From: Pelagomonas calceolata
Taxonomy: Eukaryota
Direction of reading: 5' to 3'
Assembly (NCBI GenBank): GCA_918797485.1
Contig: CAKKNE010000004.1
Location: 2,294,001-2,358,000, forward strand
Length of the DNA: 64,000 nt
A program made the translations under genes and the position numbers. Below the pieces are notes generated by a model. That model worked only from the letters and a program-made list of their open reading frames with translations, searched no databases and was not told where the DNA came from. This document shows, one piece after another, positions 18,720 to 36,247 of this stretch; positions within the stretch are counted from its first letter, which is position 1, and every line of letters begins with the position of its first letter.

Positions 18720-18835
18720 CTTGCAAGGACGCGGCCAGCATAACGCCATCGACGCGTCGCCGCAGCATCTCAGATTTCTGCCTTGCAGAGAAGTGGCCAG
18801 CAAAACGCCATCGACGCGCCGCGGCAGCAATCAGA
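18720..18835 (+). repeat. Tandem 62-bp duplication in a 5' leader
   Basis: ggccagcataacgccatcgacgcgtcgccgcagca (18733) versus ggccagcaaaacgccatcgacgcgccgcggcagca (18795). Confidence 0.8.
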
Positions 18836-28802: not shown

Positions 28803-28938
28803 TAGGCTCCGCGCGCCGGCGAGTCGCGCGCCTCTCGCGCCTCGCGAAGAACCCCACGCCCTCCGCCTGGACGGAGTTCCCCGCTCATATGATGCTTCCC
28901 GCGTATAATTTCTCATAGATATTTCGGACTGCCTTGCG

Positions 28939-28959
28939 CTAGCGGCCGTAAGACACTAG
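28939..28959 (+). promoter_or_regulatory. CTAG-bracketed upstream motif copy (near consensus)
   Basis: CTAGCGGCCGTAAGACACTAG followed by CAAG. Confidence 0.75.
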
Positions 28960-29154
28960 CAAGCTGCCAGACTGGTGTGGCTGGCTTGCATCAGTATACA
29001 GTGCAAGGTTGCGGTCGTTTTGGGGTCGCTTCAATCAGCATAGCTCGCTGGGGACGACGCCGGCAAACCACACGAACGCTACGTGCGCATTGCACACCAC
29101 ACACTAAGCGCTGCAAGGCAGTGCTGCAAAAGACAAGAGCAAGCTACGCCATCG

Positions 29155-29940
29155 ATGCGACGCGCGCTCACATTACTCACCAAGCGCGGCATGGCAGCGA
29201 CGAAGACGCACTACGACCGCGTCGCGGCGAGCTACCACGACGCCTACTTCTACAGCGACGCTTATGAAATGTGGCAGCGCGACGAGGTGCTGCAGCGCTT
29301 GGAACTGCGGCCGCACCACCGCGTCGCCGACGTTGGCGGCGGCACGGGTCGCTTCGTCGGCCTCCTCAAGGACGCCGCGGGGCTTTCTACAAAACCGATA
29401 TGTGTGGACCCGAGCGCTGCGATGCTCGAAGCTTGTGAACGCAAAGACGTCGCCTTTGTGCAGAGCGACGCCCGCGCCTACGTCGACGGCCTGCCACCGA
29501 AGGCGCTGGACCGCGTTTTACTGAAGGAGGTCGTCCACCACTTTGGTGATGACGAGCTCGCGTCGATCTGCGCCGGGCTCCACAAAGCCTTGGATGGGAA
29601 CGGCCGCGTGGTCGTCTGCACGCGGCCGCGCGACGACGTCGAGTACCCGTTCTTCGAGGCCGCGCGCGACGTCTGGCGTGCGGCGCAGCCGTCCGCGGAC
29701 CACTTCGTCGACGCCTTCGAGAAGCACGGGTTTTCATGCCGCGTGGACGTCGCGGCTTATCCAGCGGTGATTGACCGGGAGGTCTGGCTCGGGATGATGC
29801 GGAATAGGTTTTGGTCGACCTTCGCCGGCTTCTCCGACGGGGAGCTGGCCGCGGGCGTCGCCGAGGTCGCGGCGGCGCATCCGCCGGGGCCCACCGCCTT
29901 CGAGGAGCGGGTCGTGTTCATCGTGGCGGACGCCGTGTGA
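29155..29940 (+). CDS. Class I SAM-dependent methyltransferase (start 29155 or 29191)
   Basis: VADVGGGTG motif I, CVDPSAAML, DRVLLKEVVHH. Confidence 0.9.
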   Translation: MRRALTLLTKRGMAATKTHYDRVAASYHDAYFYSDAYEMWQRDEVLQRLELRPHHRVADVGGGTGRFVGLLKDAAGLSTKPICVDPSAAMLEACERKDVAFVQSDARAYVDGLPPKALDRVLLKEVVHHFGDDELASICAGLHKALDGNGRVVVCTRPRDDVEYPFFEAARDVWRAAQPSADHFVDAFEKHGFSCRVDVAAYPAVIDREVWLGMMRNRFWSTFAGFSDGELAAGVAEVAAAHPPGPTAFEERVVFIVADAV

Positions 29941-30028: not shown

Positions 30029-30975
30029 CTAGCACGCCGGATAGCACTTGCAGCACGTCGTCGTATGAGGCGCGTTGGGGAACTTCTGGCACAGGTCCGT
30101 GCAGTCCGTGAGGCCGTTGATCCCCTTCGCGCAGCGAGCCTTGGGGACCTGCGCGCAAATCAACCCGTGAGTCGGGCCACGTAAAATTTTGATTTCCACA
30201 CACAGTTGGGGACGGGAATCGGAGGCTGGCCCGGCGGGGAGTAAAACGCCCGCGGCCGCCCGGTCATACCCCCTTCGCCACACTTCGCGCACGGGTCGTC
30301 CGGGCACGTGATGCCACCTTTCGCGGTGGACCCGGTCTGGGGGCAGCCGCCGCCGCCGCAGCTGATCGAACCGTCCGCGGTGATGCCCGTCTGAATGCAA
30401 TCCCCTCCCGAGCACGTGACCGATCCCGTCGTGACAGTATTGCTCTGGTCGCCTGTGAACCGACCGGTGAGTTCCGTCTACGTAAAAATAGGACACTGGC
30501 GACGCGCAGCCTCCATTGGGGCACTCGATGTCGTCCGGGTTCTTAAGCCGCAGACCGGGCGGTACTCTCTCGTGCACGGCTTCGTGCACGGTCCTTCCGT
30601 GTACGTCGCCCCCGCCTTGTCCGCGTAGCACTTGTTCACGTATTCGACGCCGTCGGAGCCGCAGACCGGCATGAACTCCCTGGTACACGGCGTGGTCTGA
30701 GCCTGAGCGTCCGGAGAGCATTCGCCATCCGTGAACGGCATTCTCGCGCCCTGCGCCTGGCAAGCGTTCCCGTACGTCTTCCCGTTCTCGCCGCAGACGG
30801 GCGCCCATATCATGGGGCACATGAAAAGGTTCGCGCCCGGGAGCCGGTTGACGCTTACGGCCGCCGACGCGCCGACGACGAGGGCGACCGCGGCGACCGC
30901 GGCGATGATTCTGCGCCCTACTAGCTTCTTCGGCGTCGCGGCGGAGCGTTCGTCGATGGTGCCATAGCTCTCCAT
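30029..30975 (-). CDS. Cys-rich surface protein: Kazal-type repeats plus CxGGxC repeats; two small introns and one apparent frameshift
   Basis: TM/signal segment, then PVCGENGKTYGNAC and PVCGSDGVEYVNKC (Kazal). Introns at 30453-30507 (GC-AG) and 30149-30213 (GT-AG); frame break near 30545. Confidence 0.65.
30149..30205 (-). mobile_element. Introner MITE (57 bp) with 8-bp TSD
   Basis: TTGGGGAC at 30141-30148 and 30206-30213; ends ctgcgcgcaaatcaa / ttgatttccacacacag; excision restores IP|VPKARC. Confidence 0.9.
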
Positions 30976-31168
30976 TCTACAGCTGCTTGGCCTGAGAGTT
31001 AATTCTACCGGCGGAGTCGGAAGACGGTAAGCTGGTGACGGCTGGAAATGATGAGGCCCAGGACTCGTCGCCAACTATTCTCTTAGCGCCTATGCTCGGC
31101 GTCTGCGCACGGAAAAAGTGTGAAAAAACCCGTCAGTTCCAGTACTCTTAGTACAAATTACACACACA

Positions 31169-33098
31169 CTACGAGGACTCTTCAACCCCCGTCGCCGCCA
31201 CGACCTCCACGAAAAGCTCCCGCAGCAGCGTCGTCGCGTACGCCCCCGACGGCAGCTCGAAGTCCAACGTGAAACCGTCCTCGACGTGTGCGAAGGAAAA
31301 CGCCCCGGCCGTCACAACAGCCTCCCGCGTCGCGCCCTTGACGCCGAGGCGCCGGAAGGACTCGCTGTCGAGGCCGTCCGCGCGGAGCTGGGCCCGCATC
31401 GCGCGGCCCGCCGGCGTGGATTCGTCCGGCGCGTCGACGGCCGAGCCAATCAAAGGCAGCGCGGCCGGCACGTCGCCGGCGCCGCACGCCGCCGCGGCGC
31501 CTTGATTGAACAGGAACGCCTGGTACGCGTGCGCCCACATCGTCCGCGCGGCGTGCGGCGCCGCTTTGATTGCCTTGGCGGCGTCGCCGGTGCGCACGTA
31601 GGCCTGGGCCACGTCCCGCGCCGGGGACGAGCGCGGGAGCGCGTTGGAGAGCTTCTTCGCGGCAGCTCTAGCGAAATTATCAGTTGAGATGCCCTGGACG
31701 ACGTCCCTTAGATTTTCGTTCGTGGCGAAGTCGGACAAAGCCGACGCGCAGACGACGCGGAAGGCCTCCGCCGCGTCGCCCTGTAACAGGGCCCGCCCGA
31801 TCTTCCAGGTCGCCGGCGGCGTTCCTTCCTGAGCGTCGTCGCGGCCGACGCGCTGCGGGCCGAAGACGTTGAGGCACCGCGGGGCCGCGGCGAAGCGTTT
31901 CAGGGACTGATCTCGGGCGTCATCGGAGACAACGCGGAGCCGGAAGGCGTTGCCCCGCAGCCGGCCGGCGTTGAGCGCCCGCTCGGTGACAGATAACGGC
32001 CAGAGCGTCGCGTCGTCCACTCGGAGACCGCCGCCGTCCGCAACGACGCGCGCCAGGACGCGGCACGCCGTCGCGTCGCGCGACTTGCCCAAATCCACGG
32101 TCAGGAACTGGCGCGTCACCGCGCGGCGGTCCTTGACGCCGGCCGTCGCGAGCGCGCCCGCCGGCAGGCCGAGGCGGCGGCCGGCGGCCCGGATGACGGC
32201 AAAGGCCTCGGCGTTGCGCTTTTCCAGGACGCACCGCACGACGAGCGGCCAGCGCGGGCCGTCGCGCCGCCGCTTCCGGCCGCCGCGCCAGCGCGCCGAG
32301 ATCGTGCCCCCGTCGAGCCTGTGTGGATATCAAATTTCGGGCGCCCCACGCCATCGACGCGACGTCGTCCCCGTGACCGCGCCTGCTCGATGGCGTAGAA
32401 CCTAACTCACTGGTTGACTTCCACACAGCGTCGAGCGTCTTCGTCTCGCAGGCGCGGAACGCCGCGGCCAGCGTCGTGTGCACGGCGCGCCGCGCGTCCT
32501 TGTCGGCGGGGGCCTCAATAGTTGCGGTGGCCTTGTTGCCGCGCGTCCGCCCGAAGCGCTGGAGCCGCTCGACGTCTTCTGCGAAGAGGATCGTCGCGAG
32601 GGGCTTCAGGCGCAGATCCGCCTCCACGACACCGCTCTCGAGCCGGACCCGCGTCCAGGGGAACCCCGTTTCCAGCGCGAGGCGGAGGTTCAGGCGGTTG
32701 CCGCCGTCCGGCAGCGCCACGGATATTGGGGAGGCTCCCACGCCGTCGCGCAGGACCTGGTCCTTTGCGGCGGCGTCGAAGGCCCGGAGCGCGTCTAGTG
32801 TCGCCTCGCCTAGCGTCGCGAGCGCGTCCTCACCATCGCTCTCGTTCGCCTCCGCGGCCGGTTGTTGCTGCCGACTGTCGAGCTTTGCGGCGAGGTCTTC
32901 CAGCGCCGGCTTCAGCGTCGCCTCGGGCGCCCGCGTCATGGCCTCGGACGCCCGCTGGCCGTCCTCGTCGACCTCGTCGACGACGAAATCTTCGGCGCGC
33001 CGCTTGATCGTGCAGCGCGGCAAGAGCTCGTCTAGGCTCGCGTCGGCGCGGCCCCGGAAGGCGAGGCGCGCCTGGTCCGGGAGGCCGGCGGCAGCCAT
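31169..33098 (-). CDS. PUS7: TruD/PUS7-family pseudouridine synthase, 2 exons (33098-32437, 32318-31169)
   Basis: IKRRAEDFVVDEV, AGVKDRRAVTRQ, GRLRGNAF, NVFGPQRVG, HAYQAFLFN, FELPSGAYAT. Confidence 0.9.
32319..32428 (-). mobile_element. Introner MITE (110 bp) with 8-bp TSD forming GC-AG intron 32319-32436
   Basis: CGTCGAGC at 32311-32318 and 32429-32436; TIRs ctgtgtggatatcaa / ttgacttccacacag; excision restores KTLDGGTISARW. Confidence 0.93.
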
Positions 33099-33313
33099 TT
33101 TATGCTTGTTTGTTGTCGACCGCTGCGTTGCACGGCGTGCAGCGTGCGTGCAGCCCCTGCAGCCTGCAGTGCTCTCTGGGTGACTGGCAATAATTGCCGT
33201 TTGCTCTGCCAGTGCCAGCAGCGGCTTTGCTACTATCAATGCGTATTTCTACGGTACGAGCGGTGCAAATAGTGCGAGTTATCAGAGCCTCGTCGCCTGC
33301 TAGCTCAGGATGC

Positions 33314-33334
33314 CTAGTGTCTTACAGCCGCTAG
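33314..33334 (-). promoter_or_regulatory. CTAG-bracketed upstream motif copy
   Basis: CTAGTGTCTTACAGCCGCTAG, between divergent PUS7 and RPLP2. Confidence 0.7.
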
Positions 33335-33793
33335 GGTCAGACACAAAAACACACGGAGACGCTCCCATCGCATCGGGAGGCATCGGTTTATGACTCTTAG
33401 CGGGCCAACGGAGCTCGCGCACAACCCCGCACGCTTGACAGCGAGGCTCACCAAAACTTGACTTTTTGTGCGCCCCAGCGTCGTCGCTACATCCTGTGAG
33501 CAGCCGGTGCTCTCAGTATCGTTTCCTTCGAGCCGTGTGCAGCCTTGGTGCGAAGCTCAGCCGCTCGCTCGCCGTATAAAGCCCTCTGGACGCCATCGAG
33601 CGGAGAGGGGCTAAAAGCAGCGCGAGCGGCAGACGGCACTCACCGTCGGCCCGCCGAGACGCCTCGCCGAGACGCCATCGCCGCGACCGCACACGCTCAC
33701 CGTCGCTTCGCAACGCAGGTCCGTCACCGGCTTAAACACGTTTGGCTCCGCGCGACGGGACCAGACCGCCACCGACGTAGCTACGCGGAGACG

Positions 33794-33994
33794 ATGAAGT
33801 ACGTGTCGACCTATCTGATGCTCGTCATGGGCGGCAACGACAGCCCGTCGGCCGCCGACGTGACGGCGGCCCTCGAGAAGGTCGGCGTTGATGTGGATGC
33901 GGCGGACCTCAAGAGGTTCCTGGCCGGCGTCGAGGGCAAGGACCTCGCGGAGCTCATGGCCGCGGGCAAGGAGAAGCTCGCGAAGTTCGGCGGC

Positions 33995-34025
<31 letters not shown>

Positions 34026-34144
34026 GCGGCGACGCCGCGGAGGAGAAGGAGGAGGAGAAGAAGGAGGAGGAAGAGGAGGAGGAGATCGACATGGCCGGCG
34101 GCATGGACATGTTCGGCGGCGACGGCGGTGGCGACGACTATTGA
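33794..34144 (+). CDS. RPLP2: 60S acidic ribosomal protein P2
   Basis: MKYVSTYLMLVMGGNDSPSAADV...GKDLAELMAAGKEKL, Gly hinge, acidic tail ending DMFGG..DDY. Confidence 0.95.
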
Positions 34145-34422
34145 GTAAAGAGTGTTCCGTTATGTGCCGCGACGACTGGTTTGTTGTGCCGTCGTGCAGC
34201 CAGGCCTCTTCGGGAGGAGTGCTCGGAAGGTCCGCCGAGCCACGCCGAGCAATGGTCCTGCGGATTTTCATCACAATCTCACAACTTGGGCATCTCGCAC
34301 TGTCCCAGGCACTGACATTAATCAGTTTCCGGCATCGCTGTGCCGTGCAGAGCATCGCAGGCACCACATTAATCGAACCAGCACGCGTTGACGCTGCCTC
34401 GCAACAGCACAACCACCACAAG

Positions 34423-35995
34423 ATGGCCAGCCTAGCCGCATCCGCTGCACGAAAGTCGGCCCATGTTGCTCCCTCTTCCCGGCCGCTACCACCCGCCTCA
34501 AGCACCGACGCTTGCCCACCTGCGGCACCAGACAACGACGAGGGCGAGGAGGAGGAGGAGGAGGAGGAGGAGGAGGAGGAGCTTAGCCTCGAGGACCTGC
34601 GGCGGAAGCTCCAGCGGCGCGAGGTCCTCCTCGACGGAGCGGGAGTGCCTGGCGAAGTGCGTGCTCGGCTGTTCTTCCAACAGGAAGCAAGTGCGAGCTC
34701 TGGCAGGCGTAACAGTCGGTGTGGAAATCAACCAGTGAAACGCACGGGGCGCCTGATTTGATTTCCACACAGGTAAGGGCCGGCTCTAGGATGTACCTGC
34801 TCAACATCCAGAAGCGCGAAGCGCGAGGGCCCCTCATTGCGTTGGGGGCCGCCGGCAAGAACCTAGTCCGCGGCGCCTTCGGCGGCCGCTTCGACTTGCA
34901 CGTGCAGTTCCAGAAAACTGCGAAGCCGCCGGTCGTCTGGGTCTGCGGCGCCGACGACGCGCTGCCGGCGGTCGGGCCGTGGACGCCGCCGCAGCTGCGG
35001 GCGGACGACGCGCGGGCGGCGGCGCGGCGCGCGCGCGAGGACGAGGCGCGGGCGCGGGAGCGCCAGTTGTTGGACGACGCCGCGGCGCAACAGCAAGCGC
35101 GCGCCGCGGCCCGCCAGGCGGCGCGCGCGAAGATCGCGGCCGAGCGCGAGGAGCGCGAGCGCCGCGAGCGCGCGGACGCCGCGGCCAAGGCCGAAGCAAA
35201 GCGGGCGCGCGATGCGAAGCGCGCTGCAACGCGGCGCGATCTTGCTGCGGCGCGGCTAGCGGAGGCGCGGACGGCCCTCGAGCGGCGCAATGAGCCGAGC
35301 CGCATCGTGATCGACGTGGCGAACGTGGGCCACTGGAACGCATCGTCCGACAGTGGGGTCACGTTCAACTGGGACCAGGTCGCGGAGGTTTTTCAGTATT
35401 ATAAAAGAAAGGGCCTCAGACCGAGCGGATTTCTGTCGGTTCATACCAATAACCGCAACCCCATGCCTCGGAACTGGCCGTTCAAGGACTGCGTCGCCGT
35501 CGCGGCCGGCCGCGACGGCGAGCGCGACGTCGACGACCGCTTCCTGCTCCACCAGTCGAAGGAGCACCACTGCTCGATCCAGTGCACAAATCAAATCTCG
35601 CGACGGCGCACCCGACTCACTGATTGATTTGCACACAGGCTCGATCGTGACGAACGACAATTTCAGGGGTTGGGAGGAGCGGCTCCCCGACGAGGACGCC
35701 GCGTTCCTCGAGCGCTTCCGGAACGAGCTGCACGTCAACTACGTCTTCGTCGGCCCACGGAGGGGATCGCGTGAAACCTCGTCCCACGCGCTTTCCGCGA
35801 GTGGACGATGCTTAAGAGAACTTTGCGCTCCAGCGAAAACGAGACCGACGGCGTACTTCAGGTTAAATCTATGCGCCGTAGGAGCCGTGCGACCCGCTCG
35901 ACGAGCTGTGCAAGGCGAACTACGAGAACGAGAGCGACGACGCGTGGCTGGCGCAGATCTCGGGGATCATTGCGGATTCGTCTTCGGAGGAGTAA
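34423..35995 (+). CDS. DCD domain + coiled coil + Zc3h12a/Regnase-like NYN (PIN) RNase; multi-exon
   Basis: TERECL..LG..Q|VRAGSRMYLLN..RGP..G.NL..AFGGRF (DCD); IVIDVANV, DDRFLL, IVTNDNFR (NYN). Introns 34691-34772 and 35572-35638, and probably one ending at 35881. 5' frame junction unresolved. Confidence 0.7.
34717..34772 (+). mobile_element. Introner MITE (diverged TSD) within intron 34691-34772
   Basis: gtgtggaaatcaa...ttgatttccacacag; flanking gtgcgagc / gtaagggc both encode V-R-A. Confidence 0.8.
35580..35638 (+). mobile_element. Introner MITE (59 bp) with 8-bp TSD forming GC-AG intron 35572-35638
   Basis: GCTCGATC at 35572-35579 and 35639-35646; ends cagtgcacaaatcaa / ttgatttgcacacag; excision restores EHHCSIVTNDNFR. 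Confidence 0.92.
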
Positions 35996-36039: not shown

Positions 36040-36060
36040 CTAGCGGCTGTAAGACACTAG
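36040..36060 (+). promoter_or_regulatory. CTAG-bracketed upstream motif copy
   Basis: CTAGCGGCTGTAAGACACTAG followed by CAAG. Confidence 0.7.
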
Positions 36061-36247
36061 CAAGACAAGTGCCCATTTTTTACACCGCGCGCCGGGCGCC
36101 CGAGCGCGCATATCGACTCAGAGCGACCACCGCTACACACGTCTCAAAGCGCGAGTGAACGTCGCATCTCTGGGCGTAAACAAAAAGCCTCTCAGTGGCA
36201 AGTTAAAACAAGGCCATCCGCCCGCGCCAAGCGCCGTCGACGACGAT

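Follow-up and report, generated by a model that had tools for sequence, protein, structure and literature searches.

Short introns in three Pelagomonas calceolata genes are probably eroded copies of ~203-bp introner transposons

Four short introns (E1–E4) in the window, the whole 64,000-nt stretch of Pelagomonas calceolata contig CAKKNE010000004.1 analyzed here, each consist of one copy of an 8-bp target-site duplication (TSD) plus an element bounded by terminal inverted repeats (TIRs), and these elements are very probably deleted forms of ~203-bp introners that a hAT-like transposase would have moved in trans. Eight base pairs are duplicated on insertion, and the upstream TSD copy begins with the GT or GC that serves as the donor; because both TIRs end in CTG..CAG, whichever end lies downstream provides the AG. 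Splicing takes out the element and one TSD, and the coding sequence keeps its original length. The observation is real but already known, since the mechanism and the introners of this species have both been published. Introners are a main known source of new introns. Three things here are of some use: the local decay series from E2 to E5, hints of parallel gains at the population level, and the question of the transposase; cultures and RNA data exist for this globally abundant alga, so each can be tested.

Table 1. Host genes, elements and splice features in the window (joints are given with the contig runs, X4, X9 and X12, that contain them).
Feature	Position	Strand	Description
Gene A	30064..30975	-	Kazal repeats, then Cys-rich segment; lower end approximate
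E1	30149..30205	-	57-bp introner remnant in gene A; ends match subfamily S1
E1 exonic TSD copy	30141-30148	-	
E1 intronic TSD copy	30206..30213	-	GTCCCCAA in gene sense; gives donor
E1 intron	30149-30213	-	65 nt, GT..AG; joint 30140->30206, 65 nt skipped (X4, X9)
E5	30453..30507	-	55-nt GC-AG intron, from contig joint and alignment; joint 30449->30505 (X4, X9)
Gene B	31169..33098	-	TruD-family tRNA pseudouridine synthase; TruD PF01142
E2	32319..32428	-	110-bp remnant of subfamily S2, flipped polarity; in TruD gene
E2 exonic TSD copy	32311-32318	-	
E2 intronic TSD copy	32429..32436	-	GCTCGACG; gives GC donor
E2 intron	32319-32436	-	118 nt, GC..AG; joint 32310->32429 (X4, X9, X12)
Gene C	34423..35947	+	Acidic N-terminus, DCD-like segment, coiled region, NYN RNase domain; ends approximate
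E3 intron	34709..34772	+	64 nt, GT..AG; flipped polarity; DCD-like segment of gene C; joint 34708->34773 (X4, X9; 2 of 4 contig runs)
E3 decayed TSD	34709-34716	+	
E3 remnant	34717-34772	+	56 bp
E4 intron	35572..35638	+	67 nt, GC..AG; NYN/Zc3h12a-like RNase domain of gene C; joint also in X4, X9, X12
E4 TSD	35572-35579	+	GCTCGATC
E4 remnant	35580-35638	+	59 bp

The four related elements lie where the original prediction had placed them. Seven of the window's eight matches to the TIR 15-mer (at up to three mismatches; 0.47 expected, and none of 100 shuffles reached eight) fall inside E1–E4. Three of them have the exact 8-bp TSDs claimed (TTGGGGAC on both flanks of E1, whose right TIR has an extra CA; CGTCGAGC for E2; and that of E4), and the flanks of E3, GTAACAGT and GTAAGGGC, match at 5/8 positions. 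RNA-type contigs for all four introns bear out the TSD-derived donor, the TIR-derived AG and the removal of the element plus 8 nt. Each of the five joints (E1–E5) was present in two or three of the three RNA-type contig runs, which represent three studies, and none was present in the one DNA-type run; the RNA type of X4, X9 and X12 is an automated guess, backed by a ribosomal-protein depth peak. The junctions predicted for E1, E2 and E4 are all contig joints, and that of E4 also appears in four of four raw stranded RNA runs from one sample (16, 17, 11, and 10 reads, on one strand only). Among the matches listed, E4 is the element with a raw-read junction, and splicing of E1–E3 and E5 is read from contigs; hundreds of raw RNA reads from other copies pile onto the window TIRs. 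For E3, the predicted junction (34691-34772) gives way to the contig joint in Table 1, so the decayed left TSD serves here too as donor, and the contig joints rule out the candidates 34687-34772 and 34707-34789. Internal ACTCAC polarity in gene sense is, as predicted, sense in two elements (E1, E4) and flipped in two (E2, E3), and all are spliced.

A fifth spliced intron, E5, was absent from the original prediction. Its TSD matches at 4/8 positions and its TIRs are decayed, yet it retains both subterminal motifs of the introner family; it falls below the end-profile threshold, and a hand-read alignment is the sole basis for regarding it as a likely eroded family member.

Without E1, the Cys-rich frame of gene A is open through to its stop. 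The TruD open reading frame has 603 aa with E2 spliced out and 392 aa unspliced, and removal of E3 restores RALAG-VRAGSRMYLL, where homologs have RALAGVTAGSKMYLL. The RNase domain of gene C matches PF11977, and at the E4 site the annotated P0009 has HHCSIVTNDNFR. Homologs align without indels at the E2 and E3 sites; in particular, the E2 site is crossed without residue gain or loss by a TruD homolog of 90% identity (P0027) and by four of 72–74% identity on contigs of up to 32 kb (P0028, P0033, P0035, and P0036). Presence/absence variation, which the original prediction had raised, was thus found for E2 at the protein level (P0027 and the P0028 cluster lack it, and may be orthologs or paralogs alike) and for two metagenome sites at the DNA level, where loci L103 and L025 are empty versions of L002 and L110. 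The uninterrupted TruD homologs and the empty DNA loci both favor insertion over an ancient intron as the origin of these elements.

The metagenome sample comprised 121 loci, mostly short, from 2 of the 64 parts of the collection, and was biased toward copies with one perfect TIR. It yielded 73 paired elements at 70 loci, i.e., similar repeats at unrelated sites, after one of 74 pairs (L015; GC 0.51, TSD 1/8) was removed as a chance pair; among 51 unpaired TIR matches, 15 belonged to the family by profile (cut short by the contig end, or left with a partner that has decayed) and the rest were chance-like. Short and non-coding, with TIRs and a TSD, the elements have the features of MITEs. Exact flank duplication was found at k = 8 in 31 of 73 elements and in at most one of 73 at any other k from 4 to 12, and every one of these 31 TSDs started with GY or ended with RC, a pattern present in 34.8% of the flanking 8-mers (binomial p = 6e-15). 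Direction, inferred from TSDs, was unambiguous in 53 of the 73 copies; their polarity (26 vs. 25, with two ties), together with 2:2 in the window, agrees with the predicted splicing in either orientation, and 52 of the 53 have the 3' AG. Donors had no consensus beyond GT/GC. Forty loci allowed a test of the reading frame: with the element and one TSD removed, 36 had an open frame on the predicted strand and 18 on the opposite one, and 10 were open when left unspliced. RNA evidence, the 73 metagenome copies and the literature agree on an Aureococcus-type mechanism, which had been presented from the outset as not new.

The occurrence of copies as introns with frame-preserving ends would suit a spread by reverse splicing of RNA instead of DNA transposition, but this is hardly conceivable given the 8-bp TSDs, the TIRs, a conserved unit that omits the donor-bearing 8 bp, and equal numbers in both transcript orientations, the 26:25 polarity contradicting it. 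It also appears unlikely that the transposase prefers a GYnnnnRC target, in which case the donor would stem from target choice and not from later selection: the GY/RC pattern of 31/31 exact TSDs, nine of them with both ends, speaks for such a preference, but 9/31 is not above the 20% expected with one end constrained (p = 0.16; low power, intergenic copies pooled), and a palindromic target preference is not supported. Under DNA transposition, the reading we favor, selection would spare only those insertions whose target starts with GT or GC on the gene strand.

The elements had been described as a very short family, which the metagenome copies do not support. Their lengths (n = 73) run continuously from 54 to 207 bp with a single peak at 203 bp (17/73), they include three ~203-bp subfamilies whose interiors are dissimilar, and against these the window copies align as internal deletions (for E2 against S2, nhmmer E = 1e-19). 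A distinct very short family is unsupported; the window copies likely derive from ~203-bp non-autonomous transposons and are ageing forms that have lost part of the interior. We consider it very improbable that the 56–59-bp forms are a separate mini-MITE family, still mobile and transposed at that size. Three of the four window copies are indeed 56–59 bp, E3 shares 84% identity with a 54-bp copy elsewhere, and an 88/90-bp pair is 89% identical (the maximum pairwise identity among 34 short copies); however, interiors and best long parents differ among E1, E3, and E4, the length distribution has its lone peak at 203 bp, and TSDs are more decayed in short copies (at least 7/8 matching in 12 of 30 short vs. 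34 of 43 long copies, Fisher p = 0.0012). Stepwise internal loss is also visible at one site: P0004, P0007, and P0010 look like a single insertion whose interior is shorter by 0, 4, and 6 codons, respectively. According to the internal-deletion reading, the interior would be deleted after insertion and the TSD and TIRs would erode (E2 > E1, E4 > E3 > E5), with an ordinary short intron as the probable endpoint.

Introner elements (IEs) of Aureococcus anophagefferens were reportedly described by Huff, Zilberman and Roy in 2016. In the openly available text on that species, one splice site is carried and the other comes from the TSD, in either orientation, giving ~210-bp introns (10.1101/2020.10.14.339549; PMC10228655). 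The Pelagomonas elements likewise are repeats with GY-AG splicing, a TSD donor and a TIR acceptor, no net mRNA change, both orientations and presence/absence variation; the splice-site scheme is alike, although Aureococcus is a different pelagophyte genus and the likeness is one of mechanism. Classes 6, 8, and 10 of the ILEs of the dinoflagellate Polarella glacialis, as described in open text, also use an 8-nt TSD as donor and the element end as acceptor in either orientation (10.1101/2020.10.14.339549), but their donors include GA and they show a one-orientation bias, in contrast to the 26:25 of the Pelagomonas sample. For P. calceolata itself, the accessible part of the introner catalog lists fam2 as the largest family (340 copies, 202 bp, TIR, "co-opt 5′ carry 3′," donors gt:281 and gc:42), classed as TIR DNA/hAT via a RepBase match to hATv-2N1_EHux, and gives fam3 and fam39 as 203 bp with TIRs (Gozashti et al., 2025, PMC12130899). 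Our elements agree with fam2 in species, length, mechanism and donor mix, a likeness by description, and the TIR 8-mer did not occur in the published files searched; the fam2 row, in that accessible part, has no TSD value, and the window copies are remnants of 47–110 bp. The open text of an earlier survey reports 956 putative IEs with GT/GC donors, AG acceptors and a conserved TIR, and an intron length peak at ~210 bp (Guerin et al., 2022, PMC9481584), which corresponds to 203 + 8. Since the catalog already lists introners of this species under a hAT label, our finding confirms rather than discovers; in the open literature passages covered, we found no description of three 203-bp subfamilies or of parallel gains in Pelagomonas.

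The hAT-like label of the original prediction is in keeping with the 8-bp TSD of the metagenome copies and with the class of fam2 in the accessible catalog, although an 8-bp TSD fits hAT but is shared by other superfamilies and so is not diagnostic. TIRs of hAT elements typically start with YARNG; the TIR consensus here starts with CTGTG, not YARNG, and the left end of E4 with CAGTG. No autonomous or transposase-bearing copy occurred among the 121 mostly short metagenome loci (2/64 parts of the collection), and no hAT term among the P. calceolata annotation-table rows listed. L024, the most promising low-GC locus for an autonomous copy, contains phage-like structural genes. In viral contigs, 53 loci had single TIR matches and 0/53 were paired, so these are chance matches and a viral carrier is not indicated. 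Locus L102 has a family-like end on very little DNA.

As for the suggested local clustering, four elements do lie within 5.5 kb, but the corresponding probability for four uniform points in 64 kb (p = 0.002) is post hoc, because the window was chosen for this cluster. Searched with the end profiles, the 64 kb gave no further clear copy, the one additional match being weak and unpaired (E 0.65). The P. calceolata genome is ~32 Mb. Metagenome flanks held nine extra copies in 147 kb, or 1 per 16 kb, which is ∼2 times the density that 956 IEs would give in such a genome; the definitions of copy and IE differ, and clustering is therefore not established.

There are signs of parallel intron gains in wild populations. 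Independent insertions of different elements lie 5 nt apart in one gene, and two element types occur at the E4 site; from these two cases comes the idea that populations gain introners repeatedly at the same hot spots. It forms part of a joint reading that we offer tentatively and regard as rather doubtful, in which Pelagomonas introners would splice by structure and not by donor consensus, the TIR supplying branch point, AG and a hairpin to keep a weak donor beside the acceptor, and a length rule, possibly nucleosome spacing, would hold the three subfamilies at 203 bp. The structural idea draws on donors that share no bases after GT/GC. The TTGAT of the TIR, ~12 nt before the AG, may be a branch point in either orientation, and a putative TIR hairpin may hold a poor donor near the acceptor. 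If the structure and hot-spot reading were true, the birth, parallel gain and decay of introns could be tested directly in this abundant, culturable alga. The acceptor-side TIR end was intact in 52/53 directed copies vs. 47/53 for the opposite end, and position 2 was changed in 1/13 vs. 6/19, figures only suggestive of stronger conservation on the acceptor side.

Contigs from three RNA-type runs of three studies (X4, X9 and X12) and one DNA-type run were examined for splice joints across the introner elements. All four elements of the original prediction (E1–E4) were located at their claimed coordinates, and the proposed RNA junctions held for E1, E2 and E4, which were excised in RNA-type contigs as element plus one 8-bp target-site duplication (TSD). 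The flanks of these three are duplicated exactly over 8 bp, as had been claimed. E3 flanks match at five of eight positions, and its predicted junction (34691–34772) was not borne out, as X4 and X9 contigs join across 34709–34772. None of the five joints occurred in the DNA-type run, whose pieces carry E1 and E5 unspliced. E5, overlooked in the original prediction, probably belongs to this family in eroded form. In raw stranded RNA reads, where reads from other repeat copies filled the table, E4 was among the joints listed (35571 to 35639; 16, 17, 11, and 10 reads in four of four runs, one sample).

Features located in the window
Feature	Window position	Strand	Intron	Host gene	Contigs skipping the intron
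E1	30149–30205		65 nt	A (Kazal/Cys-rich)	X4, X9
E2	32319–32428		118 nt	B (TruD pseudouridine synthase)	X4, X9, X12
E3	34717–34772		34709–34772, 64 nt	C (DCD-like + NYN RNase)	X4, X9
E4	35580–35638		67 nt, GC..AG	C	X4, X9, X12 (also raw reads)
E5 (likely eroded member)	30453–30507	−	55 nt, GC-AG	A	X4, X9
Leader intron	33496–33718	+	223 nt, GT-AG
ACGCCATCGACGCGAC-like motif	32345–32400
ACGCCATCGACGCGAC-like motif, alone and weaker	29144–29169; 18743–18822; 33672–33687
CTAGTGTCTTACAGCCGCTAG-like repeat, 30 nt	28930–28959; 33314–33343; ~36040–36065
Tandem coding repeat, 30 nt	28212–28847
Gene A register break	~30540–30560	−
Gene C register break	~34620–34640	+

Insertion duplicates 8 bp, the upstream copy providing the donor and the downstream terminal inverted repeat (TIR) the AG; splicing works in either orientation and leaves coding length unchanged. 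Every intron is as long as its element plus 8 bp, and since no intron length is divisible by three, retention would cause a frameshift. The TruD protein is 603 aa spliced vs. 392 aa unspliced, and in gene A the Cys-rich frame is recovered on splicing. The prediction that splicing restores conserved motifs was confirmed at E4, whose removal regains the NYN-domain motif HHCSIVTNDNFR of annotated protein P0009 (100% identity over the aligned part; source organism named as Pelagomonas calceolata). At the E3 site, homologs lacking the intron have RALAGVTAGSKMYLL, and VTAG is retained by some relatives that carry E3; from these protein comparisons the target likely encoded VTA, with mainly the exonic TSD copy changed in this genome.

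Eight matches to the TIR 15-mer (≤3 mismatches) were found in the window vs. 0.47 expected, seven of them inside E1–E4. A generic TIR-plus-TSD scan returned E2, E4 and five unrelated matches, and a profile search of the window with the family ends gave no additional clear copy. In metagenome contigs, an exact TIR scan covering 2 of 64 parts yielded at least 121 loci, the estimated total being about 6000 stretches. Seventy-one of those loci held 74 TIR pairs, one of which was dropped as a chance pair, leaving 73 elements of 54–207 bp, 17 of exactly 203 bp; no TIR pair was present in 53 viral loci. Flanks were exactly duplicated at 8 bp in 31 of the 73 elements; for each of the other lengths between 4 and 12, no more than one element had such a duplication. 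The 28 copies of 195–210 bp form three groups (11, 15, and 2 copies) that share TIRs, each include 203-bp members, and have interiors 55–57% alike between groups by permissive global alignment. E1 and E4 align to group S1, E5 weakly so; E3 aligns best to group S2, against which E2 shows a clean double deletion. TSDs are more decayed in short copies than in long ones, and among 34 short copies no near-identical twin was found (best pair 89%). After insertion, deletion and erosion may convert elements into ordinary short introns.

All 31 exact TSDs offer GT or GC on one strand, vs. a 34.8% background; selection may retain targets with such starts. The direction of metagenomic elements was inferred from the TSD rather than from RNA, and an open-frame test agrees with it (36 of 40, vs. 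18 and 10; predicted strand vs. other strand, unspliced). The 53 elements with a single possible direction have a polarity of 26:25, 37 GT and 16 GC donors, and AG at the 3′ end in 52; donor position 3 is most commonly C (26 of 53) and positions 4–8 lack consensus. TTGAT, which lies in the TIR about 12 nt upstream of AG in E1–E4, could be a branch point that works in either orientation, and the TIR hairpins predicted for E1–E4 might help weak donors be used. Mobilization would be by a cut-and-paste transposase acting in trans; no autonomous partner was found in the 121 metagenome loci, most of them short, and the portion of the species' annotation table that was covered has no hAT entry. We consider it less likely than not that donors without a consensus are spliced with the help of structure, that element length follows a 203-bp rule and that hot spots gain introns repeatedly.

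At the protein level, P0027 (90% identity to spliced TruD over 262 residues) appears to lack E2 and to read into an S1-type element ~36 codons downstream, and the P0028 cluster appears intron-free throughout. By the same protein-level inference, five relatives read through a window-type element at the E4 site, and P0004, P0007, P0010 and five cluster members read a different element there, in three lengths. At the DNA level, two metagenome sites have empty homologs, and in two other loci, L074 (1030–1122) and L084 (301–438), homologous genes of 94% identity carry distinct introners at insertion points 5 nt from each other, likely a parallel intron gain.

The original prediction was correct and well read, and the system is already known. 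Its Aureococcus-type mechanism agrees with the available portions of published accounts, where one of the two splice sites is brought along and the other comes from the TSD, in Aureococcus (10.1101/2020.10.14.339549, PMC10228655) and Polarella classes 6, 8, and 10 (10.1101/2020.10.14.339549). For P. calceolata, the accessible parts of Guerin et al. (PMC9481584) describe 956 putative introners whose donors are GT or GC and whose acceptors are AG, with TIRs that are conserved and intron lengths peaking at ~210 bp, and those of Gozashti et al. 2025 (PMC12130899) describe 11 families, the largest (340 copies, 202 bp; 5′ site co-opted, 3′ site carried) classed as hAT. Gozashti et al. 2022, as available, list Pelagomonas MAG families averaging 80–186 bp, with TSD/TIR undetermined there. 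The window elements were compared with catalogued Pelagomonas families by published description rather than by sequence.

The palindromic ACGCCATCGACGCGAC-like motif is internal and common to S1 and S2, and draws hundreds of RNA reads originating at other loci. The leader intron is an ordinary one lacking the family TIR; it interrupts the 5′ leader of a gene with very high expression, whose product by sequence resembles an acidic ribosomal P protein. The intergenic CTAGTGTCTTACAGCCGCTAG-like inverted/direct repeat is unrelated to the introner TIR and is possibly another small repeat family. Gene A is frameshifted or chimeric: its Kazal frame and the Cys-rich frame downstream of it do not match in register and have no intron separating them, which an RNA-type contig shows too, and the ORF from the first ATG stops at 218 aa. 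Gene C seems to fuse a DCD-like segment with an NYN RNase domain; its acidic poly-E frame (ATG 34423) is out of register with the DCD-like/NYN frame, and in the spliced RNA an ORF of 100 aa overlaps with a second, long frame. The tandem coding repeat encodes a PTxVP/PTAAP-type mucin-like linker.
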